A stretch of DNA of 64,000 bases from Candidatus Uhrbacteria bacterium (lineage in GTDB: Bacteria > Patescibacteriota > Patescibacteriia > UBA9934). The notes below the pieces were generated by a model, which made no database searches, was not told where the DNA came from, and saw nothing but the letters and a program-made list of their open reading frames with translations. A program made the translations under genes and the position numbers. Of this stretch, positions 4,267 through 57,968 are shown one piece after another. Each line of letters starts with the position of its first letter. Within the stretch, counting starts at the first letter, position 1. The stretch is taken from the NCBI GenBank assembly GCA_018664485.1, contig JABJOE010000005.1:15581-79580 (forward strand). Reading direction: 5' to 3'.

Positions 4267-4305
4267 GATTTGTACGTACGATCCTACTAAAAATGGTTTT
4301 CCGAT

Positions 4306-4337
4306 AATCTTCACGAGGAATCGTGGAGATTTTTTGT
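4306..4337 (+). terminator. rho-independent terminator ATCTTCACG-AGGAAT-CGTGGAGAT + T6 (copy 1 of a 32-nt repeated terminator)
   Basis: 9-bp stem (one G-U) + TTTTTTGTT; near-identical copy at 4897-4928. Confidence 0.7.
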
Positions 4338-4377
4338 TTGTGATTATGCTTTAAATTGTACGTCTTTAGCCCAATAG

Positions 4378-4406
4378 GTTGACAAAAGCCTGTTTTTTTG
4401 CTATAT
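4378..4406 (+). promoter_or_regulatory. promoter TTGACAAAAG-N13-TATATT
   Basis: TTGACA 4378-4383, 17-nt spacer, TATATT 4401-4406; AGGAAA RBS-like before ATG 4445. Confidence 0.55.
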
Positions 4407-4444
4407 TATTTTGTTCTTTCAACCATCAAACCCAAGTAGGAAAC

Positions 4445-4762
4445 ATGGAAACTGTAGCAGTCGTGCATAGTAATGATGTGGGTGTCTTCGTCAGGGATGG
4501 CCTTTACATTTCGAGTGTCGAAGGCCCGCGAGACCAGTCACGCACTGTCACTTTTCCAGATGGTACCCGTACCATGCGTGCTACTACCCATCAGCAAGAA
4601 AATTGTACTCTGTGGGTGACCACAGGTGGTCGGGTGTACTGTCAGGGCTATCGCAGACCCGGCAATCCAACCCGCAGGCTCAGGTCCTACAATCAAGACA
4701 CTCTCCATGATCTGTTCGGTTCCCTCATCCTCCCACGTGATTTCTGGGGGCTCCGTACTTGA
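4445..4762 (+). CDS. hypothetical protein (GC-rich cassette; start at METVAVVH)
   Basis: ORF 4379..4762 trimmed to ATG 4445 downstream of promoter/RBS; by-eye GC clearly above the flanks (not computed); no known motif. Confidence 0.45.
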   Translation: METVAVVHSNDVGVFVRDGLYISSVEGPRDQSRTVTFPDGTRTMRATTHQQENCTLWVTTGGRVYCQGYRRPGNPTRRLRSYNQDTLHDLFGSLILPRDFWGLRT

Positions 4763-4896
4763 TTCGCACTAAGCCGCACCATATAGAGATCGCTTCGGCG
4801 CCTCCTCTCCGGTGCGGTCTTCTATTTGAAATATTTATGGGTAGTGTAAAGTTCGAGCGGTAGTTATAGATTATTCAGATGGCGAGAGCTAAAATC

Positions 4897-4928
4897 ATCT
4901 TCACGAGAAATCGTGGAGATTTTTTGTT
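4897..4928 (+). terminator. rho-independent terminator (copy 2 of repeated terminator)
   Basis: ATCTTCACG-AGAAAT-CGTGGAGAT + TTTTTGTT; one substitution in loop relative to copy 1. Confidence 0.7.
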
Positions 4929-4941
4929 ATACTGCCCAACG

Positions 4942-5632
4942 TATGAAACCTTATCAAGAATACCTAGAAGGGACTGAGGAGATATTGAAAGCTAGTAGAG
5001 CTGAAACAGATAGGTACGAGACTGAGGTGCTTGGACGTAATTTTATAGTTCATCCGAATGTATTCTCGCCAAAGTATTTCAAGGATACGGAGCCGTTTGC
5101 AAAACATCTGCCAATAACAGAAGGACAGACAATGCTTGAGATAGGTCCTGGTACAGGTGCTGTATCTATTACGGCGGTCCATAGGGGCGCAAAGCATGTA
5201 ACAGCAATCGACATCAATTCATCTGCTGTTGCTAACGTGCGAGAGAACATCCAGCTTCACAATATGCAAGACCAGATCGATGTCCGCTTTGGCGATGTAT
5301 ATAGTGCTCTTCAGCCTAATGAAAAGTTCGACGTGATTTTTTGGAATACTCCATTCGGTCTCATCCCAGATAACGCCGAGATTACAGATTTACAGAGGTC
5401 AGTTTATGATCCTGGCTATATGGCTACGGAGCGGTTTATTTTGGACGCAAAGCAGCACCTTAATCCAGGCGGAGTCGTTTATATAGGGTTTAGTTCAACT
5501 TTGGGTAAGTTGGACTTAATTGAGTCCTTTGCGGAAAGGTCAGGCTTTACTTTGAAAAAGATATTTGAAATAGATTCAACGGAGAAGCATCAGGTGAAGT
5601 TTGAGATTTTCAAAGCTGAACTGAGAACATAA
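4942..5632 (+). CDS. class I SAM-dependent methyltransferase (HemK/RsmC-like N-methyltransferase; motif I LEIGPGTG, motif IV NTPF)
   Basis: GxGxG SAM-binding motif and D-V-I-F-W-N-T-P-F (NPPF/NPPY-type) motif; track ORF start 4913 lies inside terminator hairpin so start moved to ATG 4942 (MKPYQEY). Confidence 0.7.
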
Positions 5633-5642
5633 TAATTTAGCT

Positions 5643-6017
5643 ATGAAACTTCAAGGAATAACTGTAAAAGAGATTGAGCTGACACCAGCTATAGAAGAAT
5701 ACGTTCTTAAGCGTGTTGCTAAATTGTCGAAAATTTGTCAAAAAGAGAAATCTGCAACTATACGTGTGGAACTTGGTGAGCGACCCTCGCAGCACAGGGG
5801 TGTTGGAGATAGCTTTTACGCTGAATTGGACGTTACTATCAAGGATCAACATTTTAACGTCAAGAAACATAACCCAAATATATATAGGGCGATCGAGAAG
5901 GCTAGGGTAGATATGCACCAAAAGATAATCAAATGGAAGAAAAAGGATTTGAGCACTCAGCGAAAAAACGGTGCAGAAATTAAGAAATTCCTTAGGTCTG
6001 CTGATTACAATGAATAG
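5643..6017 (+). CDS. hpf: ribosome hibernation promoting factor (HPF/RaiA/YfiA family), copy 1
   Basis: MKLQGITVKEIELTPAIEEYVLKRVAKL... matches short-form HPF N-terminal pattern (I.GKN.E.T.A...YV..K..KL). Confidence 0.6.
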   Translation: MKLQGITVKEIELTPAIEEYVLKRVAKLSKICQKEKSATIRVELGERPSQHRGVGDSFYAELDVTIKDQHFNVKKHNPNIYRAIEKARVDMHQKIIKWKKKDLSTQRKNGAEIKKFLRSADYNE

Positions 6018-6340: not shown

Positions 6341-6365
6341 TTAGATTTCAGAAGTTATAGAAGAT

Positions 6366-6394
6366 CCCGCTTGGAAGAGCGGGGTTTTCTTTTG
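6366..6394 (+). terminator. rho-independent terminator CCCGCT-TGGAAG-AGCGGG + T-run
   Basis: GC hairpin then TTTTCTTTTG after DUF378 gene. Confidence 0.7.
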
Positions 6395-6430
6395 TTAATA
6401 AATAATTAGTTTGTGATACCATGTGTCCAT

Positions 6431-6832
6431 ATGAAAAAGAGTATAGTTTTTATTATTGGAATTTTTGTTGGGGCAGTGTCCGTGTTCCTTTTATTCCAAT
6501 ACATTCAAGTCAATACTCCCTTCATAGTAGGTCCGATTCAATTTACATGTGAATATAGCGGCGGGGTTTTTAAGGGCGATGTTTGCGTCTGTCCAATTGA
6601 AGAACAGTTAGGACAAACGCAAGAGATGATGTACGACGAATCAACTGGGTACTGCCAAACGACATATGGCGGTCCAGGGGGGGATGCAAGTAACGTGCTC
6701 CTTGGTTTTGAATACTTTTTTAGCATCGTTGAATATAATTGTAATGAAAGCGGTGGCATTTCTCATACATATTCAAGGTGTCAGTGCCCAGATGGGTCGG
6801 AGTATGATAAAGATACCGGATATTGTTCCTAG
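6431..6832 (+). CDS. secreted/membrane-anchored Cys-rich hypothetical protein (start at MKKSIVF)
   Basis: N-terminal hydrophobic segment then 12 Cys; no known domain. Confidence 0.5.
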   Translation: MKKSIVFIIGIFVGAVSVFLLFQYIQVNTPFIVGPIQFTCEYSGGVFKGDVCVCPIEEQLGQTQEMMYDESTGYCQTTYGGPGGDASNVLLGFEYFFSIVEYNCNESGGISHTYSRCQCPDGSEYDKDTGYCS

Positions 6833-6856
6833 GATTATATTTTGATCATTGAAAAA

Positions 6857-6886
6857 CCCCGTTCCAAGGAGCGGGGTTTTTCTTTT
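6857..6886 (+). terminator. rho-independent terminator CCCCGTTCC-aa-GGAGCGGGG + T5
   Basis: hairpin plus TTTTTCTTTTG. Confidence 0.7.
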
Positions 6887-6984
6887 GTATTGATTGTTGC
6901 CCTGGTATTAAGAGTTTGATGTATGTAGAGTGAATATATATGAAACGAAGCGTGAATTAACTTATACAAAATAAGGATGGCGAC

Positions 6985-7338
6985 ATGCTGCTTCAGTTGC
7001 GGGATGATAAAGAGGAGATTTGCAATCCGCTTATGTGGAATTTTTTTGGTGGGAAGATTGAGGACGGTGAAAGCGTTTATGACTGTGCAGTACGTGAGTT
7101 GAATGAGGAGCTATGTGTAAGTGTTGATGTTGATCAGTTTGAATTACTGATGACTTCAGGGTTTGAGAGCTCTGGAGAAGTGACTTTATTGAAATTACTT
7201 AAACCGCTGAGCTTGAGAGAAGTTGAATTGAAAGAGGGGTGCGGCTTAGCATTTGTGTCGTCAGCAAGCGCTCTTAAGATGAATATAACGTTAGCAACAC
7301 GGTATTTTATAGAACACATAATTGTGAAAGAACTTTAA
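6985..7338 (+). CDS. NUDIX hydrolase domain protein, N-terminally short (possibly truncated)
   Basis: Nudix box GGKIEDGESVYDCAVRELNEELCV (Gx5Ex7REUxEExGU with C for G); box begins at residue 21, upstream in-frame stop at 6958 prevents extension. Confidence 0.5.
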   Translation: MLLQLRDDKEEICNPLMWNFFGGKIEDGESVYDCAVRELNEELCVSVDVDQFELLMTSGFESSGEVTLLKLLKPLSLREVELKEGCGLAFVSSASALKMNITLATRYFIEHIIVKEL

Positions 7339-7409
7339 AACGAAAACCGCCCATGACAAGCGCCAGGGGCGGTCGTCGGGGGCGGCGAGGGAACTGCGTG
7401 GGGACGGAA

Positions 7410-7670
7410 TCAGGCTCCCAGCTCATCGAGACATTCATCAACGAGGCTCTTGATATCTTTGTCGACATCAGCGAGCTGGCTGAATGGGGCAAGCGCCTTG
7501 CGAACATCTGCCAGTGAGGTGAAGCGGAGGGTCACGAGCGGCCATTTTACCACCACTCCGTGCGTTCCTCTTCCGCCGTCTGTGACACTGACTCGTGCCT
7601 CTATCCGAACATTGGTGGCTACGTATACCCATCCAGTCAATTCTGCATGGGAGGGTTCTTGGTGGGCCAT
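7410..7670 (-). CDS. hypothetical protein (GC-rich island)
   Basis: Track ORF 7410..7739 trimmed to Met (MAHQEP) downstream of minus-strand promoter 7711-7740. Confidence 0.4.
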   Translation of the reverse strand: MAHQEPSHAELTGWVYVATNVRIEARVSVTDGGRGTHGVVVKWPLVTLRFTSLADVRKALAPFSQLADVDKDIKSLVDECLDELGA

Positions 7671-7710
7671 GGGATCTCCGTGGGTGGATTTGCTTACGTG
7701 TTGGTAGGAT

Positions 7711-7740
7711 AATCTATCACAAAAAAGCCCTTTTGTCAAG
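7711..7740 (-). promoter_or_regulatory. promoter TTGACAAAAG-N13-TAGATT (minus strand)
   Basis: complement of 7735-7740 = TTGACA; 17-nt spacer; TAGATT = complement of 7711-7716. Confidence 0.5.
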
Positions 7741-7874
7741 GTATATAGGGTTAATGCGCAATAATAGAGTTATCAAAAACACCACCTTAATAAGGTGGTG
7801 TTTGGCGCTAGAAACACAATGGCGCTGTACAGGGGGAGTTACCCGCTGCACAGCGCCAGAAGCGACCGAGTCGC

Positions 7875-8417
7875 TTACTCGTATACTCGCGTCATGACCA
7901 ATTCCCCTACAATGAGGTGGTCGCCGTAGACCTCATGGTCAAGTACCCAGAGCTCGCCTCTGATCGAGGAGAGGTCCAAGTCGTCGGACGATCCGTCAAA
8001 TCGGAGGTTGAACCGGTGTTTTCCTTTTTGCAAGGTCAAGTCGATCTGTACCTCTACCATCCCGTCGTCTGGGCAGTAGACAGCTCGCTCAATCTCGCGC
8101 AGGCACATCACCGTTTCATCAAGGCCGTACTGAGTACACCCGAGGTCTTCTCCCCGGATCTCTCCCCAGTATTGCACCCAGTCGCCATATGCCCCGGTTT
8201 CGGGACTCGGCTCTGTTGCGTAGCTGAGTTGAAAACCTACACCTTCTTTGGTGCCCTGCCACTGGTCGGTTCTATTGTCTCCAACATTTACCGACGGAAG
8301 ATCGGTTGGCCGTTCTGTACAGTTGTCTGACAATGCCAGCCTATCGGGAGCCTGACAGCCAATGTACAGCCCGGCGGTTAGGGGTACAAGCCCCCTAACC
8401 AACCGGTGGAAATTCAT
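7875..8417 (-). CDS. secreted hypothetical protein (signal peptide, several Cys; GC-rich island)
   Basis: N-terminal hydrophobic leader LVPLTAGLYIGC; no known domain. Confidence 0.5.
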   Translation of the reverse strand: MNFHRLVRGLVPLTAGLYIGCQAPDRLALSDNCTERPTDLPSVNVGDNRTDQWQGTKEGVGFQLSYATEPSPETGAYGDWVQYWGEIRGEDLGCTQYGLDETVMCLREIERAVYCPDDGMVEVQIDLTLQKGKHRFNLRFDGSSDDLDLSSIRGELWVLDHEVYGDHLIVGELVMTRVYE

Positions 8418-29870: not shown

Positions 29871-32800
29871 ATGACTCATAAATTAAAACAAAATTTCTTC
29901 CGTATTCTACCGATTTGGGTAGCGGGATGTTTGATTCTTTCAACGGCACTTATGTTCTGGGGAGGAATTAGTACACAAGACGCGAGTGCCGCAGCCCTCG
30001 GATCACCAAATGTAGAGCCTGCAACATTGGTTGCTGGTGCGACTGGAACAGCAACAATCACATTTACGACAACGACGACTATTCCAGCTGACGGAAAAAT
30101 TAAAGTTACCTTCCCGTCTGGATTTGACGTTACAGGTGCTACTGCTGGAGCGTGTCCTTCTATGGACGGTAACTTCGCTACCGCGATTGACGGTCAAGAG
30201 GTTACTCTTACTCGATCAACTGGAAACCCTGAAACGGCAAATGTAGAGTCGTGTACTATCGATGGAATTGTTAACCCACTCTATGCTGGGTCGACAGGAG
30301 TATACGGAATCGAAACTACTAACGGATCAGATGTGCAGGCTGATGTTGACGCGGCAGTTTCCGCTGACACTATCGTCGCAACTGATGCTGCTGCGACTAT
30401 CGTAGTTGCTGCTCCAACAGTTGGTGCTGCTGGCGACGTAACTGTTACATTGACACCGAACCTTGCAACGGACGCAGATGATACGCTAGACATTACTTTC
30501 CCTGCTTTCATGAATGTATCAAGCGTAGCCTCTGCGGTTACTGGTACTTTGGAAAACGGTGGAGAGATTACTTGTGCAGATGCTGGATCACAGGTCGTTA
30601 CCTGTACAGTTATCTCAGGAACTCCGCTCACAGCGAGTTCTACGATCATCATGACTGGAATTACTTCCTATTATGTAGGATCAACCGACGTGACTCTTCT
30701 GGAAATTGAAGACGAAGGAGTCGCTGCAAACGATATTGCAACAGATACGTCTGTCGCTATGACGGACATCACGGCCGCAGATGCTGCAGCGAGCGTGGCT
30801 CTCGGAGCTGCAACTGTTGGTGCTACTGGCGATGTTACCCTTACATTGACTTCAACTGTTCAGTTGGACGCAGATGACACAATTGACGTTACTTTCCCCG
30901 CGTACATGAATGTATCAAGTGTAGCCTCTGCGGTTACTGGTACATTTGAGAACGGAGGTGAGATTACTTGTGCAGACGCTGGATCACAGGTTGTTACCTG
31001 TACTGTTATCTCAGGAGCTCCACTACTATCAAGTGGAACAATCGTTATGACAGGAATCACTTCCTACTATGTGGGAACTACAGATATTACCTCTCTGGAA
31101 ATTGAAGACGAAGGATCTGCTTCAAACGACATTGCAACAGATACTTCCACAGCTCTTACAGACATTACTGCAGCCGATGCTGCTGCGACTATCGTAGTTG
31201 CCACTCCAACAGTTGGTGGAGTAGGTACAGTAACGGTTACCTTGACTCCAACTGTTCAGTTGGATGCAGATGACACATTGGACATTACTTTCCCTGCTTT
31301 CATCGATGTATCAAGCGTAGCCTCTGCGGTTACCGGTACTTTGGAGAACGGTGGTGAGATTACTTGTGCAGATGCTGGATCACAGGTTGTGACTTGTACA
31401 GTTATCTCAGGATCTCCACTATTATCGAGTGGAACGATCATCATGACTGGAATTTCATCTCTATATATAGGGTCAACGGACGTCACAGTGTTGGAGATTG
31501 AAGATGAAGGAGCTTCCGCAAACGATATTGCGACAGATACTTCCACAGCTCTTACAGACATTACTGCAGCCGATGCTGCTGCGACTATCGTAGTTGCTGC
31601 TCCAACAGTTGGTGGAGTTGGTGACGTAACTGTTACATTGACAACGACTGTTGCGACGGATGCAGACGACACATTGGACATTACTTTCCCAGCTTTCATG
31701 GACATATCAAGCGTAGCCTCTGCGGTTACCGGTACTTTGGAGAACGGAGGTGAGATTACTTGTGTAGATGCTGGATCACAGGTTGTTACTTGTACAGTTA
31801 TCTCAGGATCTCCACTATTATCGAGTGGAACGATCATCATGACAGGAATCACTTCCGACTATGCAGGATCAACTAATGTTACAACTTTTGCAGTTGAAGA
31901 TGAAGGTGTCGGTGCAAACGATATTGCTGCAGACAGTGATGTAGCTTTGACAGATATTACGGCAGCAGACGCTGCTGCAAGTATCGTTGTTGCTACTCCA
32001 ACAGTTGGTGGAGTAGGTACAGTGACTGTTACTTTGACCACTACTGTTGCTACAGACGCGGACGACACATTGGACATTGCTTTCCCAGCTTTCATGGACA
32101 TATCAAGCGTAGCCTCTGCGGTTACTGGTACATTTGAGAACTCTGGAGAGATTACTTGTGCAGATGCTGGATCACAGGTCGTTACCTGTACAGTTATCTC
32201 AGGATCTCCACTACTTACAAGTTCTACGATCATCATGACAGGAATCACTTCCGACTATGTAGGATCAACTAATGTTACAGCTTTCGCAGTTGAAGATGAA
32301 GGTGTCGGTGCAAATGACATTGCTGCAGACAGTGATGTAGCTTTGACAGATATTACTGCAGCAGACGCTGCTGCGACCGTAGTCGTTGCAACTCCAACCG
32401 TTGGTGGTGTAGGTACCGTAACCGTTACCTTGACTACAACTGTTGCATTGGACGCGGATGATACGATCGACATCACATTCCCTAACCAAATGGACGTTGG
32501 AGCAGTTGCATCAGCTGTTACTGGTACTTTGGAGAATGGAGGTGAGATTACTTGTGCAGATTCCGCTCAGGTTGTGACTTGTACTGTTATCTCAGGATCT
32601 CCACTACTAACAAGTGCCACGATCATCATGACGGGAATTACTTCTTACAATGCTGGGTCAACAGACATTACTACCTTCGAAATTGAGGACGAAGGGGTGG
32701 CTGCAAATGACATTGCAACTGATAGTGCTGTAGCATTGACAGACATCACTGCGGCGGCATTGACATCAACAAACGTGCAGCCATCAACGACGATCGTTGG

Positions 32801-51494: not shown

Positions 51495-52817
51495 ATGATG
51501 CAATCAAAGAACGTACATATCGTGGGAATTGGGGGTATTGGAACCTCTGCTGTGGCAAAGTTGTTTTTGTCGCGTGGGGCGTCTGTTTCAGGGTCCGATA
51601 TGCATGAAAGCGAGCTGATCACTGACCTTCGTGGCCGCGGCGTTGATGTTCTCATAGGGCATTACCCGGCAAATATTCCAGAGGGTTGTGATTTAGTTGT
51701 GTACACTCGTGCTGTCGTTGAGGCGAACGTTGAGCGGCAGGCGGCCGTAGAGCGCGGAATCAAACAACTATCGTACCCAGAATTTCTCGGAATACTCGCT
51801 AAAGATTACAAAACGATTGCGGTGAGCGGAACGAACGGTAAAAGTACAACAACGGCGATGATTGCAGCGACGTTGATCGAAGCTGGTTATGATCCGACTG
51901 TCATCGTTGGAACAAAAGTTCCGGGTTGGTCTGATGGTAACTTACGAGTTGGGAAGGGTGAGTGGTTGGTGCTCGAGGCATGTGAGTACATGGCGAGCAT
52001 GCTCGAAATTCATCCGAACACGGCGGTCATTACAAATATTCAAGAAGATCATTTAGACTTTTATAAAGACATCGATCATATTCGTGAGACTTTTCAGAAG
52101 TGGATTGATTGCCGCGAAACTTGTGCGCAGGTTGTGATAAACCGTGATGATGCTGAGTCTCAAAAGTTAAAGTCAAAGTATGTTTCTTCATTCGGAGTTG
52201 ATGGGCGGAAAGTAGGTGATAAAAAACAGACCTTCGATGTAGTTGGCGTTGAGGTTGAGCTTGCGATTCCGGGTGAGTTCAATGCACAGAATGCTGCTGC
52301 CGCTTTGACGGCCGCGCATATCGTTGGGGTGCCAGACGAAGCTGCAGTGAAAGCGCTCGGGGAATTCAAAGGAACGTGGCGTCGATTTGAACATGTTGGA
52401 ATGTGGAAAGAGGCGGATATATTTTCTGACTATGCTCATCATCCGTCAGGTGTAGCTGGATCTATTGAGGCGTTTCGCGAGTTCTATCCTGATCGAAGAC
52501 TGATCGTAGTATTCCAACCTCATCAGCATTCTCGTACTCATGAAATGTTTGATAAATTTGTTGAGTCATTTGATGGGGCTGATATTTTGGTACTGTCTGA
52601 GATTTACGAAGTTACCGGCCGAACAGAAGAAAAGTTTGAATCTTCAAAGGATTTGGCTGACCAGGTGCGTAACCGTGGGCGCAACGGTAAGGTTTTGTAT
52701 GCAAAAGATTTGGGAGAGGCGGAAGATCATCTCCGTTACGCTGTGCAGAAAGATGACGTAATAGTTTGCATGGGAGCAGGTTCGATTGATTCAATAGCTC
52801 GTAAGATCGCAGAATAG
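51495..52817 (+). CDS. murC: UDP-N-acetylmuramate--L-alanine ligase MurC
   Basis: VHIVGIGGIGTSAVA, GTNGKSTTTAMIA P-loop, Mur ligase middle/C domains. Confidence 0.9.
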   Translation: MMQSKNVHIVGIGGIGTSAVAKLFLSRGASVSGSDMHESELITDLRGRGVDVLIGHYPANIPEGCDLVVYTRAVVEANVERQAAVERGIKQLSYPEFLGILAKDYKTIAVSGTNGKSTTTAMIAATLIEAGYDPTVIVGTKVPGWSDGNLRVGKGEWLVLEACEYMASMLEIHPNTAVITNIQEDHLDFYKDIDHIRETFQKWIDCRETCAQVVINRDDAESQKLKSKYVSSFGVDGRKVGDKKQTFDVVGVEVELAIPGEFNAQNAAAALTAAHIVGVPDEAAVKALGEFKGTWRRFEHVGMWKEADIFSDYAHHPSGVAGSIEAFREFYPDRRLIVVFQPHQHSRTHEMFDKFVESFDGADILVLSEIYEVTGRTEEKFESSKDLADQVRNRGRNGKVLYAKDLGEAEDHLRYAVQKDDVIVCMGAGSIDSIARKIAE

Positions 52818-52818
52818 T

Positions 52819-53202
52819 ATGAAAAGGAATCGAGGATGGGAACTTCTCTATAAGAGTGAACGTTACGGAATGTGGTTTGCTTTTTTCGCTACTGGTGCTC
52901 TTATATTCAGCACTATGTTTGTATACAGCGAAGTACTTGTTAATATTTTGCCTGATTGGTTCCATGAACCATTTATGAGGGATAAACGGGGGAATGATGT
53001 TGATCTGATTTCTATCATTGCTTTGTTAGTAGTTATCCCTGCTTATATTTCGGTTCAAAAGATCAGAGACAAGAAAGTAGAGGGAAAAAACAAAAGTGGA
53101 AAAACCATTGACGGTGATGGCTACACGATTGCTGCATTAAGTTTATCAGCCCTGTATCTATTCATTTATTTAATCTGGTACGTTATAGAACTCTATGGAT
53201 AG
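52819..53202 (+). CDS. hypothetical 3-TM membrane protein inserted between murC and downstream gene
   Basis: start overlaps murC stop (TAGTATG); flanked by duplicated murC 3' end. Confidence 0.5.
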   Translation: MKRNRGWELLYKSERYGMWFAFFATGALIFSTMFVYSEVLVNILPDWFHEPFMRDKRGNDVDLISIIALLVVIPAYISVQKIRDKKVEGKNKSGKTIDGDGYTIAALSLSALYLFIYLIWYVIELYG

Positions 53203-53311
53203 TATTGGCAAACAATTAAAAACGAACTTTCGAGCTCGACTACTTGAAGGCGATATTATTGTTTGTATGTGTGCTGGATCAATTGATTCACTAGCACGAA
53301 AGTTAGTATGA
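53195..53311 (+). pseudogene. relic duplicate of murC 3' end (encodes MDSIGKQLKTNFRARLLEGDIIVCMCAGSIDSLARKLV, cf. MurC ...LRYAVQKDDVIVCMGAGSIDSIARKIAE)
   Basis: ~65-nt imperfect direct repeat of 52750-52822 including the stop/start junction TAGTATGAAAA. Confidence 0.6.
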
Positions 53312-54336
53312 AAAATCCAGAGAGTGAAAAAGCTGGAATGTGTAGTCATGGTAACTTTTCGGATAGCTGTGTTAAGTGTCGAGAAGTGATTATAGAAAAG
53401 CATGATCAGTTGGATAATGAGGGTGTTTACGTAATTCACGGTCAAGAATCTGGCGCTGTAGCATTCGGTTCTATCCATACAAATAACCCTGAAAGCATCA
53501 CTATCGCAAAGCTTAAAGACTCATTAAATGAATATGAGCAGTCTGTAGAGCGTGCTGAGATTTCGTTGATGGTTGAAGGGATGCACGGGCAGGAAGGTCA
53601 GCTAGACGTTGAAAAGCTTATGGAGGGAGTGTCAACGCTTGGAGAATCCGTTAAGCGGCATGGCGAATCTGGCGTTTTATTCTGGTACGCAAAACAGGCG
53701 CTAGATAAAGGTGAGACTGTCAAAATTACATCTCCAGAAAGACCTGAAGATGATATCGTAACCGTGTTACATAAAGAGGGTTTTGCCGCTGAGGATATTG
53801 CTACGTATCTTTCGCTTCGTGCGCTTACAAGTAGCGTGGGGAGAGGGGTTAAAAGAGATGAACCAATGGCTTTGTTAAAACAGAAATTTGCTCGTGAGGC
53901 TTATCATATTGATCAACTGACTGGAGCTGGATGGATTGAGGATGTGCGTACGGAGGCGGAGCTTAAGGAGATGGTTGATAAAGATCCAGGTGCTCTTAGC
54001 GCTTATGTAGAGTTGGTGGGTGCCCAGTTTTTAAGCAGGTTAAATGCGCGGGTGATGGAATTGGGGTCTAAAATGGGTATTTCTACGACTGTTGAATCTC
54101 TTTTTTCGGGAGATTTGCAAAACGTTTCCATTGATGATGTAAATGAATTGTCTGATCCGTTAGATTTTTCTGGGCGTGATACGCCGGTAAATAAAGTTTC
54201 TGGTCGATGGAATGCGTTGCGTGACGAATATCTATTATCTTCGATACAGGAATCTATTGCGCAAGGAGAGAAGCCATTTGTAGTTTTTGGAGCCTCACAT
54301 GTAATTGTTCTTGAAGATTCGCTAAAGGGATTATGA
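53308..54336 (+). CDS. hypothetical protein (between murC and murB)
   Basis: 342-aa ORF, N-terminal CxxC...CxxC, no known domain. Confidence 0.5.
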   Translation: MKNPESEKAGMCSHGNFSDSCVKCREVIIEKHDQLDNEGVYVIHGQESGAVAFGSIHTNNPESITIAKLKDSLNEYEQSVERAEISLMVEGMHGQEGQLDVEKLMEGVSTLGESVKRHGESGVLFWYAKQALDKGETVKITSPERPEDDIVTVLHKEGFAAEDIATYLSLRALTSSVGRGVKRDEPMALLKQKFAREAYHIDQLTGAGWIEDVRTEAELKEMVDKDPGALSAYVELVGAQFLSRLNARVMELGSKMGISTTVESLFSGDLQNVSIDDVNELSDPLDFSGRDTPVNKVSGRWNALRDEYLLSSIQESIAQGEKPFVVFGASHVIVLEDSLKGL

Positions 54337-55286
54337 ATAAACTAAAAGAAATTTTTGGTGATAGGTTCTTGACCGATGAGCCGCTTGCGAAACATTTGAA
54401 TTTCAGGATCGGTGGACCTACAAAATATTTCGTTGAAGTAAAAACGATTGAAGAATTGCAACACGCACTTGCGGCCGCAAAGGAAAACAGCGTTGAGACG
54501 TTTGTGTTGGGAGGAGGGTCAAATACCCTTGCGAGCGATGCTGGGTTCGATGGTTTGGTTATTAAACTCGCCTTGCGTGCTCATCAGATTGACGGCACAA
54601 CGGTTGTTGCCGAAGCCGGGATGATATCAGCGGCTTTGGCGCGTGTAACTGCTTCTGCGGGTCTTTCGGGATTTGCTTGGGCTATCTCACTTCCAGGAAC
54701 TATCGGTGGAGCTGTCCGTGGTAACGCCGGATGTTTTGGGGGCGAGATGAAAGACACAGTAGTGAAGGTAGAAGTATTGCGAAATGGAAAAATAGTTGAA
54801 CTCTATGCTGCTGACTTAGAGTTTGGTTATAGGGATTCTAAAGTGAAACATAACGACGATATTGTTTTGCGCGTTTGGCTTGAGCTCGCGCAAGGAGATT
54901 CAGAGGTGTTGTTGCAGCAATTAAAAGATACGGTTGAGGCTCGTAAGGAAACTCAGCCGTTACATGCTGGATCAGCAGGATGCATTTTTAAAAACTTTGA
55001 GTTTAGCGACGTCTCTGAAATTGAAAAGCTAGTGAGTGCTACGGATGTTCCAGAGCCGATGATTACAGGTAAACGTATTTCTGCTGGTTGGATTATCGAT
55101 CAGGCCGATTTGAAGGGTACTCGAATTGGAGACTCTGCAATCAGCGACGAGCACGGTAATTTTCTCATCAACCATGGAAAAGCAACGGCAGATGAGATCG
55201 TACAACTCATTGCTCTCGTGAAAACACGTGTGCGCACTCAGTTTGGTATTCAGCTGCAAGAAGAGGTTCAGTATTTAGGATTTTAG
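54333..55286 (+). CDS. murB: UDP-N-acetylenolpyruvoylglucosamine reductase MurB
   Basis: FAD-binding LNFRIGGPTKYFVEV, VLGGGSNTL, C-terminal GSAGCIFKNF. Confidence 0.9.
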   Translation: MNKLKEIFGDRFLTDEPLAKHLNFRIGGPTKYFVEVKTIEELQHALAAAKENSVETFVLGGGSNTLASDAGFDGLVIKLALRAHQIDGTTVVAEAGMISAALARVTASAGLSGFAWAISLPGTIGGAVRGNAGCFGGEMKDTVVKVEVLRNGKIVELYAADLEFGYRDSKVKHNDDIVLRVWLELAQGDSEVLLQQLKDTVEARKETQPLHAGSAGCIFKNFEFSDVSEIEKLVSATDVPEPMITGKRISAGWIIDQADLKGTRIGDSAISDEHGNFLINHGKATADEIVQLIALVKTRVRTQFGIQLQEEVQYLGF

Positions 55287-55336: not shown

Positions 55337-55642
55337 ATGCGCCTTACAGAAATCAAGGGACTTAACATGGACCTTACTGATGCGATAAAGGATCATGTAG
55401 AAAAACGTTTGGAAGGTTTAGAGCGGTTGTGCGAGGATCTTCAGCCATGCGATGTTGCCGCTGTAGTTGGAAAGACTACAAAGGGTCAGCAGAAGGGGTT
55501 GATCTTTAAAGCGGAATTTAATCTCAATATTCCGGGTACATTATTGCGCGTTGAGACGGTTAAGGAAGATTTGTATGAAGCGATTGACGTTGCTTTGAAA
55601 GATTTAAAACGACAGCTGGTTGCGTATAAAGAGAAGCGTTAA
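55337..55642 (+). CDS. hpf: ribosome hibernation promoting factor (HPF/RaiA family), copy 2
   Basis: MDLTDAIKDHVEKRLEGLERL... beta-alpha-beta-beta-beta-alpha HPF pattern; paralog of 5643..6017. Confidence 0.6.
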   Translation: MRLTEIKGLNMDLTDAIKDHVEKRLEGLERLCEDLQPCDVAAVVGKTTKGQQKGLIFKAEFNLNIPGTLLRVETVKEDLYEAIDVALKDLKRQLVAYKEKR

Positions 55643-55678
55643 TGTTAGTAGGTTTTGCTATAAGAATTTAAATGCAAT

Positions 55679-55706
55679 GAATCCCGAACTAGGTTCGGGA
55701 TTCTTT
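55679..55706. terminator. terminator: perfect 11-bp hairpin GAATCCCGAAC-TAG-GTTCGGGATTC + TTTC
   Basis: between hpf copy 2 (+) and convergent small gene 55728..55874 (-). Confidence 0.65.
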
Positions 55707-55727
55707 CGTGCAAGACGAGGAGTTGTC

Positions 55728-55874
55728 TTACTCGTAGGTGTTTGCGGCCATTGCCTCGGTGATCACTGTCGCGACCACGTCGGCGCTCCCCAGGTTGTGA
55801 GTGTTGGCCTTCGCCATCAGAATGGCGATGACTACAATCAGGGCCACGATGACGTGGTGTGGGCGGATTTCCAT
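55728..55874 (-). CDS. small (48 aa) single-TM protein
   Basis: minus-strand ATG 55874 preceded by GGAGGT RBS and (CAA)10 leader; MEIRPHHVIVALIVVIAILMAKANTHNLGSADVVATVITEAMAANTYE; not in ORF track (<60 aa). Confidence 0.45.
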   Translation of the reverse strand: MEIRPHHVIVALIVVIAILMAKANTHNLGSADVVATVITEAMAANTYE

Positions 55875-55888
55875 TTTCCGTTACCTCC

Positions 55889-55922
<34 letters not shown>

Positions 55923-55926
55923 GGGG

Positions 55927-56103
55927 TCAGTCGATGTAGATGATCTCGCACGTGTCAGGTGGGGTCACCTTGCAGGTGGCTTCCGACCCTTTCTCGGCGA
56001 TGATCACAAGATTGCTTACTTCTCGCTCAGCAACATATCCGTGTACGAACATGCGACCGAAGAATGCGGCGAGCACCATTGCTGCAACCGTAAGGTGGCG
56101 CAT
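55927..56103 (-). CDS. small (58 aa) signal/TM peptide (MRHLTVAAMVLAAFFG...)
   Basis: GGAG RBS 5 nt upstream of ATG 56103; R1 repeat 35 nt upstream. Confidence 0.45.
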   Translation of the reverse strand: MRHLTVAAMVLAAFFGRMFVHGYVAEREVSNLVIIAEKGSEATCKVTPPDTCEIIYID

Positions 56104-56137
56104 TAAGTCTCCGGGGAATCGATGCATGTTGCATCTA

Positions 56138-56185
56138 GGTTCACGAAATGCAGGAACGTGTCGTGCACTTTGTGAACCCTTGGAG
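56138..56185. repeat. R1 repeat copy a (48 nt, internal inverted repeat GGTTCAC...GTGAACC)
   Basis: identical to 56958-57005. Confidence 0.85.
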
Positions 56186-56214
56186 GCTATCGGCGGTATA
56201 TCTTCAAATCTTTT

Positions 56215-56256
56215 GCCTCAGAGATCACGACGTAGTCATGGTCTCAATTGGCGGCC
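56215..56256. repeat. R2 repeat copy a (42 nt hairpin element GCCTCAGAGATCACGAC-GTAG-TCATGGTCTC-AATTGGCGGCC)
   Basis: four copies with compensatory substitutions in the stem. Confidence 0.8.
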
Positions 56257-56298
56257 ACAGAAAGATTCCTGGGCCTAGGGGAGATGACGGTTGCCATC

Positions 56299-56505
56299 TC
56301 AGAAGATGAAGTAGTGCCGGTTGGTGATGTCTTCACCGTTTTCTGCGATGTCGGGGGTGGGCAGGGCCTCGATCGAGTCGAGTGCCTCGACCAGAGCAGG
56401 GCTCAAGTCGGGGGACATCACAGCCTTGAGGGCAGCGTTGTCGTCGGTGGTGGTTGAGGTTCCGGTGCTCAGAGCGAGCAGAACGGCAAGGATGGTGTTG
56501 GACAT
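56299..56505 (-). CDS. small (68 aa) secreted acidic peptide (MSNTILAVLLALSTG...)
   Basis: signal-peptide-like N-terminus; track ORF trimmed to internal Met. Confidence 0.4.
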   Translation of the reverse strand: MSNTILAVLLALSTGTSTTTDDNAALKAVMSPDLSPALVEALDSIEALPTPDIAENGEDITNRHYFIF

Positions 56506-56584
56506 ATTGTCCTCCGTTGTGGGGTGGGTGGGTGTCACCAAGCATGTAATGACACTTACTCAACTCACAACTTTTATTTGCATC

Positions 56585-56626
56585 GCCTTGGAGGTCACCA
56601 GCTAGTGATGATCTCAGTTGGCGGCC
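56585..56626. repeat. R2 repeat copy b (diverged)
   Basis: GCCTTGGAGGTCACCAG-CTAG-TGATGATCTC-AGTTGGCGGCC. Confidence 0.7.
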
Positions 56627-56681
56627 TAGAGAGATGATTCTAGGACCACGGTTGAAGAGTGAAGGAAGGTTGGTTGGTAGT

Positions 56682-56927
56682 TCAGGCAGGTGTTCCTTGG
56701 TACATCGTCCCGAAGGCCAGGAGGAGCAAGAACATCTTGGCCAGAACCATCATGCTGCCGCCCCAGATTGCGGTCGCTCCACGATCGTAGTGGGGCATAC
56801 GACGCATCCGAATCATCAGGATGGCGGCGATGGTCAGCGATGCGGCGAAGCCGACGCTGGAAGTAGTGATGCCTGCATCGGTGCAGAGCATGGCGAGAAA
56901 TTCAGCTTTGAGTTGGGTCGGGGTCAT
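56682..56927 (-). CDS. small (81 aa) two-TM membrane protein (MTPTQLKAEFLAML...)
   Basis: GGAG RBS 6 nt upstream of ATG 56927; R1 copy b 30 nt upstream. Confidence 0.45.
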   Translation of the reverse strand: MTPTQLKAEFLAMLCTDAGITTSSVGFAASLTIAAILMIRMRRMPHYDRGATAIWGGSMMVLAKMFLLLLAFGTMYQGTPA

Positions 56928-56957
56928 GGTGGCTCCAGTGTGATGCATATGCATCGA

Positions 56958-57005
56958 GGGTTCACGAAATGCAGGAACGTGTCGTGCACTTTGTGAACCC
57001 TTGGA
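56958..57005. repeat. R1 repeat copy b
   Basis: 48/48 identical to copy a. Confidence 0.85.
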
Positions 57006-57020
57006 GCTCGTATTACGTAT

Positions 57021-57064
57021 TGCCTCAGAGATCACCACAAGCATGTGATGGTCTCAATTGGCTG
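57021..57064. repeat. R2 repeat copy c
   Basis: GCCTCAGAGATCACCAC-AAGCA-TGTGATGGTCTC-AATTGGCTGG; G-C to C-G covariation at stem position 9. Confidence 0.75.
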
Positions 57065-57101
57065 GTAGTTGGACAAGAAATGTCCGCGTACCAAGTGCTG
57101 T

Positions 57102-57281
57102 TTAGCCTGTGATCATCATGAGGAAGAACAGACCGCCGAGCATCGTGCCCCCGATCAGGAAAAGTACCGTGATTAGTGCTTTCGCTAAATCTTCGTCCTT
57201 TCGTGTTTTTTCTTCTTGTGATCTGATTCTGATCTCGTTGGCTCGTTTCTGCTCATAACTTGGCTGGCGTCGTTTTCTCAT
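57102..57281 (-). CDS. small (59 aa) tail-anchored membrane protein (basic N-terminus, C-terminal TM)
   Basis: MRKRRQPSYEQKRANEIRIRSQEEKTRKDEDLAKALITVLFLIGGTMLGGLFFLMMITG; not in ORF track (<60 aa). Confidence 0.4.
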   Translation of the reverse strand: MRKRRQPSYEQKRANEIRIRSQEEKTRKDEDLAKALITVLFLIGGTMLGGLFFLMMITG

Positions 57282-57327
57282 TGCTTCTACCTATTCGGGT
57301 TACTGCCCGATATGTGGAGGCGTATTT

Positions 57328-57369
57328 GCCTCAGAGATCACGACATAGTCATGGCCTCAATTGGCAGCC
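57328..57369. repeat. R2 repeat copy d
   Basis: GCCTCAGAGATCACGAC-ATAG-TCATGGCCTC-AATTGGCAGCC. Confidence 0.75.
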
Positions 57370-57424
57370 GCGGAACAGTGAAGTTCCGCGGCAGTCAGCT
57401 ACGTAGTAACGCAGGTGATGGGCC

Positions 57425-57628
57425 TCAGAGGGAGGCGAGGACATCAGGATTGATGTCGTTGGTCCGGGGCGTGATGCCCATGACCGGGATGGTCGCGCCG
57501 CCGTTGGGCTGGAGCGAGTCCATGGTGTCGCTGAGCTTCACCATGGACTCGTGCATTTCGTAGCACGGAATGGCGAACCCGCCGATGGTGAGTGCGAAAG
57601 CGAGGCCGAGGTGAATGATTCGAGTCAT
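57425..57628 (-). CDS. small (67 aa) secreted/lipoprotein-like peptide (MTRIIHLGLAFALTIGGFAIPC...)
   Basis: GGAGA RBS 6 nt upstream of ATG 57628; track ORF trimmed. Confidence 0.45.
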   Translation of the reverse strand: MTRIIHLGLAFALTIGGFAIPCYEMHESMVKLSDTMDSLQPNGGATIPVMGITPRTNDINPDVLASL

Positions 57629-57677
57629 GATGGATCTCCGAGTTGTAGTGCACTGAGTTGTGCTTGATCCTGACCTA

Positions 57678-57706
57678 ATAGTAGCACGTTTTAGCACTTT
57701 TGTCAA
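57678..57706 (-). promoter_or_regulatory. promoter TTGACAAAAG-N13-TACTAT (minus strand) heading the small-peptide array
   Basis: complement of 57701-57706 = TTGACA; 17-nt spacer; TACTAT = complement of 57678-57683. Confidence 0.5.
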
Positions 57707-57968
57707 GTTACTCTGGACAGAAAAGAGAGAGAAAACCTTATAAAACAAGCATAAAACAGTCTTTTTGTTTTGTATCTTTGAACTAAAATTCAATAACTTT
57801 TTAGCCTAATAAAGACAAAGTTGTACGCCTTGTCATTTTCGACATTTTCAGGCACAATAGCGACGTTATACCCAACGGAATGGCCTTTAACATGTACTTT
57901 CTAAAAGTGCCTTAAGGTCTACGGGATAAAAACTCATATACAGATTTTGGATAACTCTATTTAAAGTT

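Follow-up and report, generated by a model that had tools for sequence, protein, structure and literature searches.

In Escherichia coli, the element e14 is flanked by icd and by icdC, a C-terminal pseudogene (PMC13626634). Homology-facilitated illegitimate recombination is a proposed explanation for displaced 3′ ends of effectors and for orphan immunity genes in type VI secretion system (T6SS) arrays of Vibrio cholerae, as well as for Rhs orphan modules (PMC5361080), and single-crossover integration of recircularized DNA was found experimentally to produce duplications of 109-950 bp of the homologous stretch (PMC3240628). Here, we describe a locus related in anatomy to these systems in a 64-kb stretch of Candidatus Uhrbacteria DNA (the window, to which all coordinates refer). 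The 3′ end of murC is present in this locus a second time, as a relic, about 0.5 kb downstream of the first copy. A gene for a 127-amino acid (aa) protein lies between the two copies, and a gene for a 342-aa protein follows the second copy and precedes murB (Table 1). We favor, with moderate confidence, the interpretation that heterologous DNA was spliced into the genome at the junction between murC and its downstream gene, with this arrangement as the resulting recombination scar.

The resemblance to e14 and phage 21 at icd lies in the order of the parts: an intact housekeeping gene runs into the insert and a short C-terminal pseudogene fragment is found at the other end, and there, as here, most differences between the two copies are silent or conservative (PMC13626634). 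In the window, the intact gene end and the displaced 3′ fragment that flank the insert are copies 1 and 2 of the repeat, respectively. However, e14 is a 15-kb element that has its own integrase and is able to excise, whereas the insert in the window is only about 0.5 kb long, with one membrane-protein orphan open reading frame (ORFan) and no recombinase. The element lacks a gene for a tyrosine or serine recombinase; its sole gene, the 127-aa ORFan, has no Pfam, NCBIfam, or PHROG assignment. The copies in the window (72-73% identity) are also far more diverged than those at icd, and the relic spans only about 20-32 codons. In the orphan modules of T6SS, Rhs, and CdiA systems, as may have occurred here, a conserved upstream gene serves as the anchor for incoming DNA, and the resident 3′ end and its downstream gene are pushed along and kept (PMC5361080). 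Those modules, in contrast, consist of polymorphic toxin and immunity genes under diversifying selection, whereas the anchor at this locus is a cell wall ligase and the putatively displaced module is a GumN/TraB-like gene with no evident toxin or immunity logic. A Campbell-type crossover likewise leaves a short homologous stretch duplicated directly on both sides of the insert (PMC3240628). The homology in the window differs from this precedent in amounting to about 65-75 nucleotides (nt) at about 73% identity, of which 11 nt are perfect. A homologous stretch of this kind is far below what RecA normally uses. We read the locus as a recombination scar of a known type, found in a host that is unusual for it, a member of the candidate phyla radiation (CPR), and at an unusual place, the murC-murB overlap; it does not represent a new mechanism or system.

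A repeat of the murC end was part of the original prediction for this DNA, and it is present where it was claimed, with slightly larger extents. Its ungapped core (52750-52805 and 53247-53302) is 73% identical over 56 nt and is followed in both copies by an exact 11-mer, TAGTATGAAAA (52815-52825 and 53304-53314), that occurs at only these two sites within the window. Eight additional nucleotides precede the 11-mer in copy 1 only, and because of this indel the 11-mer is read differently in each copy. In copy 1, TAG (52815-52817) is the murC stop codon, and a single T separates it from the ATG of the 127-aa gene, whereas in copy 2 the stop codon TGA (53309-53311) overlaps the ATG of the 342-aa gene (53308) as GTATGA. 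The 11-mer holds functional stop and start codons, and selection could account for its identity. When the copies were aligned at the nucleotide level, their similarity was significant, with a local alignment score of 42 compared to 17.9 ± 2.3 (maximum, 28) in 500 shuffles, which is about 10 standard deviations above, and an affine-gap score of 74.4 compared to 30.1 ± 5.4. A profile of MurC (119 homologs, 442 positions) aligns the translation of the relic (53213-53308) to positions 410-441 with an E value of about 1e-8, and the 38-aa open reading frame (ORF) that holds this MurC-tail relic agrees with its earlier description; the alignment is weak in its reach back to 53213. No other murC-derived sequence was found between the copies by the same profile in the six frames of 52810-53330. 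The repeat may continue into the heads of both downstream genes, over their first 11-18 codons (KSERYGM versus ESEKAGM), a similarity that is marginal in protein shuffles (P of about 0.011) and not significant at the nucleotide level (AGAGTGAA...GGAATGTG), and we do not rely on it.

The same region was found at 100% nucleotide identity in at least 10 further contigs from ENA, JGI, and Logan, which derive from different samples and assemblers; one of these contigs carries a single gap, located elsewhere than the repeat. The source samples are JGI 3300072015, ERZ4201032, the ERZ2725xxxx and ERZ2724xxxx series, SRR7617950, and SRR8437081. The presence of the same arrangement in at least 11 independent assemblies indicates that it is not an assembly artifact. 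While the shortness of the repeat, taken alone, could suggest chance similarity or an artifact, the alignment scores, the match to the MurC profile, and the identical contigs from at least 11 samples and different assemblers make the probability of this explanation close to negligible. All contigs of the locus are 100% identical and thus clonal, and for this reason neither within-population polymorphism nor the ratio of nonsynonymous to synonymous substitution rates could be obtained from them.

Comparison to relatives (loci L013, L014, L025-L028, L030-L032, and L038) shows that the ancestral neighbor of murC was murB. The nearest of these loci has 76% MurC identity, and identity between MurC of the window and Uhrbacteria MurC proteins is 61-76%. 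In L025 (75% MurC identity), the gene order is DnaB, permease, folD, glyA, murC, murB, hpf, a 68-aa gene, and secA, and murC overlaps murB (GTGTGA). Similarly, murC runs into murB with a GTATGA overlap in L013 (70%), and murB lies directly after murC in L014 (49%). The N terminus of MurB in the window is orthologous to the MurB heads of L025 and L028, and neither the 127-aa gene nor the 342-aa gene was found in any of the fetched relative loci. The adjacency of murC and murB in relatives, together with the absence of both intervening genes there, shows that about 1.5 kb was inserted in this lineage, and both genes are lineage-specific insertions within a cluster of glyA (− strand), murC, murB, and hpf. 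These comparisons support the earlier proposal of a gene-insertion scar inside a mur cluster, with murB further downstream. They run counter to the idea that the gene at 53308 was the ancestral neighbor of murC, because it is murB that follows murC in L025, L013, and L014.

Several of the relatives depart from the window in other ways. GlyA of L030, L031, and L032 is 55-57% identical to that of the window while MurC is 68-71% identical, and GlyA of L025, L026, and L013 is 82-86% identical to GlyA of the window, which suggests that glyA, or the linkage of glyA to murC, has a different history in the clade of L030, L031, and L032. In L031 and L032, murB is missing between murC and hpf.

The differences between the two tails bear on how the second copy arose. 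Over 18 in-register codons, the copies have 3, 1, and 11 differences at codon positions 1, 2, and 3, respectively, and 14 of 18 residues are common to both. An ortholog-type pattern of this kind (3, 2, and 13 differences) is seen between copy 1 and the L025 tail. In nucleotide identity, copy 2 is closer to the tails of L026 (78%) and L025 (74%) than to copy 1 (72%), and across 56 MurC homolog tails the mean identity was 11.79/18 to copy 1 and 11.80/18 to copy 2. The relic tail, GDIIVCM-AGSIDSLARKLV followed by a stop, is family typical except for a Gly-to-Cys change and is 16/18 identical to P0015. In MGAG, 57 of 57 MurC homologs have the Gly, and Cys stands in its place in the relic alone. 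The commonest ending in the MurC family is LARKLV followed by the stop codon. The position 3 bias, together with the family consensus kept by the relic, suggests that the tails diverged while both were working murC ends. The differences are like those between functional murC tails of lineages whose distance from each other is roughly that of different species, and one tail would have been inactivated only recently relative to the divergence of the tails. The tails are probably xenologs or long-coexisting paralogs and not the products of a decaying in situ duplication, an argument that comes from 54 nt.

Alternatively, the junction between the murC tail and the following start codon may have been duplicated in situ by slippage, unequal crossing-over, or staggered-break fill-in, with the 127-aa sequence then entering or originating between the two copies and the downstream one decaying since. 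Direct repeats about 0.5 kb apart that have an exact 11-mer in common are consistent with this model, no donor was found, and the weak similarity that perhaps reaches both gene heads would be expected of a target duplication that spans the junction. However, the model predicts neutral decay of the nonfunctional copy, and the differences are mostly at position 3 in a relic that keeps the family consensus. When an in situ duplication with a neutral relic was simulated to 11 position 3 differences, four or fewer differences at positions 1 and 2 were obtained with a probability of 0.004, and four or fewer amino acid differences with a probability of less than 0.001; with both copies under purifying selection (omega of 0.1), the probability was 0.41. 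On this simulation, neutral decay after duplication in situ is rejected. A simple binomial for the codon-position bias gave 0.009-0.059, depending on the assumed share of changes at positions 1 and 2 (0.023 with our own estimate). In addition, copy 2 is no nearer to copy 1 than to the tails of other species, and the interposed 372 nt have no similarity to the body of the 342-aa gene. The tail differences agree with a heterologous origin of one copy, as homology-facilitated or single-crossover recombination would require, on 54 nt only, and we regard duplication in situ as unlikely. Of the two events originally suggested, duplication or displacement of the murC terminus, displacement by heterologous DNA is the one that the divergence of the tails favors, and a simple, recent in situ duplication is not favored by it. 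We also rejected a tandem duplication of the murC tail together with a 5′ portion of the 342-aa gene, because a comparison of the 127-aa protein to the 342-aa protein scores less than the mean of shuffles and nucleotide similarity ends at the junction.

A second explanation for working tails that diverged separately is that the genome long carried another complete murC alongside the first, either a paralog or an acquired xenolog, which was then deleted except for its last 32 or fewer codons, the present relic. This would account for divergence of the purifying-selection type in both tails and for the native-looking GTATGA junction to the 342-aa gene. Nevertheless, no other murC-derived sequence is present between the copies in any frame, two murC genes in a streamlined genome of about 1 Mb would be unparsimonious, and no second murC tail was found among the relatives examined. 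We consider this explanation somewhat less likely still than duplication in situ.

In the recombination scar that we favor, one murC 3′ end and its adjacent gene would have arrived from a different Uhrbacteria lineage, joined through short homology of the murC tail and junction on one side and through an illegitimate joint (approximately 53213-53247) on the other. Three routes would converge on one product: illegitimate recombination facilitated by homology, a single crossover of the Campbell type by a recircularized fragment, or an integrase acting in trans. In this product, an intact murC ending in one of the tails would be followed by the 127-aa membrane ORFan and then by the other tail, truncated to 32 or fewer codons and still fused to the 342-aa gene by its native GTATGA stop-start overlap. 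With an exchange at the 11-mer common to the copies, the native parts would be copy 1 and the 342-aa gene; the 127-aa gene would have come in alongside copy 2, and an ATGA would have coupled these two in the donor. With an exchange at the left edge of the repeat, copy 1 and the 127-aa gene would be incoming, and copy 2 with the 342-aa gene would be the displaced resident module. Either copy 1 or copy 2 (with the 342-aa gene) could be the resident tail, and any of the three routes could have been taken. A copy 1 tail joined to the head of the 342-aa gene (...GCTCGTAAGATCGCAGAATAGTATGAAAAATCCAGAGAGTG) would represent the empty site or an excision product, and a copy 2 tail joined to the head of the 127-aa gene (...GCACGAAAGTTAGTATGAAAAGGAATCGAGG) would represent the donor or a circular form.

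A number of observations weigh against this scenario. Neither a donor lineage nor an intermediate arrangement was found among sequences in which the nearest relative has 76% MurC identity and the copies of the locus are clonal, and no genome was found that has the 127-aa gene, or murC followed by a gene of the 342-aa family, in databases that cover the clade thinly. Sliding-window MurC identity shows no breakpoint and gene-by-gene identity rankings are concordant, both at a divergence at which resolution is poor. The copies match exactly over no more than 11 nt at a stretch, too short a length for an efficient RecA-dependent crossover, and no integrase or transposase was found among the ORFs or Pfam matches in or adjoining the insert. 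An illegitimate joint is expected to have 3-10 bp of microhomology; at the left boundary this is limited to AAG (at 52750 and 53247), the joint can be located only to 53213-53247, and the codon-position argument has 54 nt at its disposal. At third codon positions, the inserted genes have a GC content (GC3) of 0.35, a value that falls inside the range of the neighboring genes, and composition was dropped as a sign of foreign origin for this reason. A chimeric or xenologous murC was set aside as well, as there was no breakpoint in sliding-window identity and gene rankings were concordant, results that are uninformative at 75% identity.

The murC-murB junction has been struck independently by other insertions in sister lineages, whose cargo is unrelated to the 127-aa and 342-aa genes. 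In L026 and L027, a 93-aa GIY-YIG gene is found at the murC-murB overlap, placed exactly after the LV codons, where it extends MurC by HSSPS; the gene is bounded by inverted repeats CCATCCTGAG...CTCAGGATGG. The insert occupies positions 4836-5215 of L026, with repeats CCATCCTGAGCGAAGCCGAAGGATC ... GATCCTTCG...CTCAGGATGG, and is also found in L027. A second GIY-YIG gene lies 3 kb downstream of the first, and murB of L026 is called as two ORFs of 171 and 147 aa. In L028, the closest relative (76% MurC identity), a perfect palindrome with 20-nt arms, GTTACCCAGTAAACGCATTT...AAATGCGTTTACTGGGTAAC, lies between murC and murB (1560-1620), and the final codons of murC, the stop codon included, lie in its left arm. 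In L038 (Uhrbacteria CG_4_9, 61% MurC identity), a 224-aa ORFan lies between murC and murB (5333-6007) and a 378-aa ORFan between murB and hpf (6960-8096), neither of which is related to the cargo in the window. A duplicated murC tail was not found at the other junction insertions (L026/L027, L028, and L038).

One speculative extension of these findings is that the murC-murB overlap is a dedicated gene-capture site at which small, integrase-less cassettes, each with its own murC tail and junction, insert and stack in the manner of an integron or an orphan-module array. The unit in the window would be about 0.5 kb long (the 127-aa gene and a tail), each cassette would inherit translational coupling, and the 38-aa frame would be kept as a ribosome relay to the 342-aa gene. 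We find this extension very doubtful. A degraded element of the e14 or phage 21 type, which carried a surrogate murC 3′ end, was site specific for the end of murC, and has lost its integrase and most of its cargo except for the 127-aa gene, has a slimmer chance yet. The anatomy of intact gene, insert, and C-terminal pseudogene at the far end is that of icd-e14-icdC, the two copies have an identical 11-nt core, and the junction is repeatedly targeted in sister lineages; on the other hand, there is no recombinase, there are no terminal inverted repeats, the insert is only about 0.5 kb, and the cargo has no phage, plasmid, or viral match. Insertion of a transposon or insertion sequence was rejected on similar grounds, as there are no terminal inverted repeats and no transposase, and the repeat is about 65-75 nt. 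Repeats of this length are far longer than known target-site duplications.

The gene between the copies encodes a small protein with hydrophobic segments at approximately residues 17-44, 62-80, and 103-125 by hydropathy, in agreement with the three-transmembrane protein originally described at this position. An AlphaFold model consists of three long helices and has low confidence (predicted local distance difference test score [pLDDT] of 66.9). No homologs were detected in a word-index search of 5.8 billion proteins or in Pfam, PHROGs, or NCBIfam, and none were detected by tblastn against phages or plasmids, in viral contigs, or in the fetched loci. The gene has a GC content of 0.37 and a GC3 of 0.35. 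From the frequency of stop codons at 37% GC, we estimate the chance of an open frame of 127 codons at about 1e-4. This low chance, together with the exact coupling to murC, argues that the ORF is a real gene, or was one until recently.

The 342-aa protein appeared orphan-like in the word-index search. An exhaustive HMMER search with the same protein found 120 relatives, the best of which is 43% identical over residues 28-342 (E = 4.5e-79), and these relatives are found in unrelated genomic contexts. Residues G54, H57, E90, G119, E120, R305, D306, G328, and H331 are invariant in the family, which has two invariant GxxH motifs plus a Glu and an Arg. The match of the protein to PF01963 (TraB/PrgY/GumN) is below the Pfam gathering threshold (16.6 bits; cutoff, 26.8), and subthreshold matches to PF01963 were also obtained for 19 of 26 family members. 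An AlphaFold model has a pLDDT of 89.7, with residues 1-17 disordered, and its best fold matches in PDB, EreC (an erythromycin esterase) and BcR135, are both weak. The motifs and the model suggest that the protein is a distant member of an erythromycin-esterase/TIKI/TraB/GumN-like hydrolase superfamily. Its C terminus (VVFGASHVIVLEDSLKGL) was ruled out as a third copy of the MurC tail, since KKPFxxFGASH is a motif conserved in its own family. The first seven codons of the gene (53308-53328; MKNPESE) resemble the start of murB in L013 (2504-2524; MTNPEAE) at 5 of 7 residues and 15 of 21 nt, and the MurB heads of the other relatives and of the window itself differ from MKNPESE (MNKLKEIFGDRF and similar). 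This likeness may be due to chance or to an A-rich bias in start regions, or it may be a trace of a captured ancestral murB head.

Table 1. Coordinates of features at the murC-murB locus within the window
Feature	Position	Strand	Description
murC	51495-52817	+	UDP-N-acetylmuramate--L-alanine ligase, 440 aa, intact; three Mur ligase Pfam domains, all above threshold
Repeat copy 1	52750-52825	+	Functional murC tail (DDVIVCMGAGSIDSIARKIAE, then stop), stop codon TAG, a single spacer base, and the first bases of the next gene (ATGAAAA)
127-aa ORFan	52819-53202	+	Small protein with three hydrophobic helices; starts 1 nt past the murC stop codon
38-aa open frame	53195-53311	+	Holds the relic; ATG overlaps the stop of the 127-aa gene (ATGGATAG) and TGA overlaps the start of the 342-aa gene
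44-nt stretch	53203-53246	+	From the 127-aa stop codon to the onset of clear murC-tail homology; nucleotide homology begins at 53247
Repeat copy 2	53247-53314	+	murC 3′-end relic (GDIIVCMCAGSIDSLARKLV, then stop); stop codon TGA overlaps the ATG of the next gene (GTATGA)
342-aa gene	53308-54336	+	Putative distant relative of TraB/PrgY/GumN and erythromycin esterases; lineage-specific insertion
murB	54333-55286	+	317 aa; N terminus MNKLKEIFGDRF; ATGA overlap with the 342-aa gene
hpf	55337-55642	+	

Genes of the locus are on the + strand unless otherwise stated, and folD and glyA lie upstream of murC on the − strand. The 38-aa frame was called as a gene by the gene caller of one public assembly. 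Along murC, the 127-aa gene, the 38-aa relic, the 342-aa gene, and murB, the spacings between stop and start codons are +1 (TAG-T-ATG), −8 (ATGGATAG), −4 (GTATGA), and −4 (TTATGA), from which we infer that the five ORFs may be cotranslated through their stop-start junctions. The relic frame, which is still open, could serve as a translational bridge that passes ribosomes leaving the 127-aa gene on to the 342-aa gene. Promoter-like and terminator-like sites in the region were not enriched over shuffles, and no RNA families or transfer RNAs were found above chance. RNA folding around the relic had a z score of −2.5, and a weak hairpin is present at 53227-53250; such hairpins are not enriched over shuffles.

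Other parts of the window also contain repeated sequence. The spacer between hpf and secA (55650-57960) is about 2.3 kb long, compared to about 350 nt with one 68-aa gene in L025, and has a GC content of 0.52-0.57, compared to 0.455 for the whole window. It contains palindromic repeats, among them a perfect 48-mer at 56138-56185 and 56959-57006, and positions 56212-56262 are about 90% identical to 57325-57375. ORFs in the spacer are overlapping only and have no Pfam match. This spacer may be a second lineage-specific insertion or a cluster of repeat elements. At 30378-32755, there are six tandem copies of a 396-nt (132-codon) unit with 62-92% identity, presumably a repeated domain of a large protein. 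Paired similar sequences that consist of a hairpin and a T run, and are thus terminator-like, are found 78-590 nt apart at 450-575, 4304-4928, and 6361-6885.

If it is a scar of this type, the locus would represent a dated, sequence-level footprint of recombination between diverged lineages in an uncultivated CPR bacterium with a small genome. It would also show how ORFan genes can enter an essential cell wall operon with translational coupling unbroken. Taken together with the insertions in sister lineages, it suggests that the murC-murB junction is a recurrent site of gene acquisition in Uhrbacteria.

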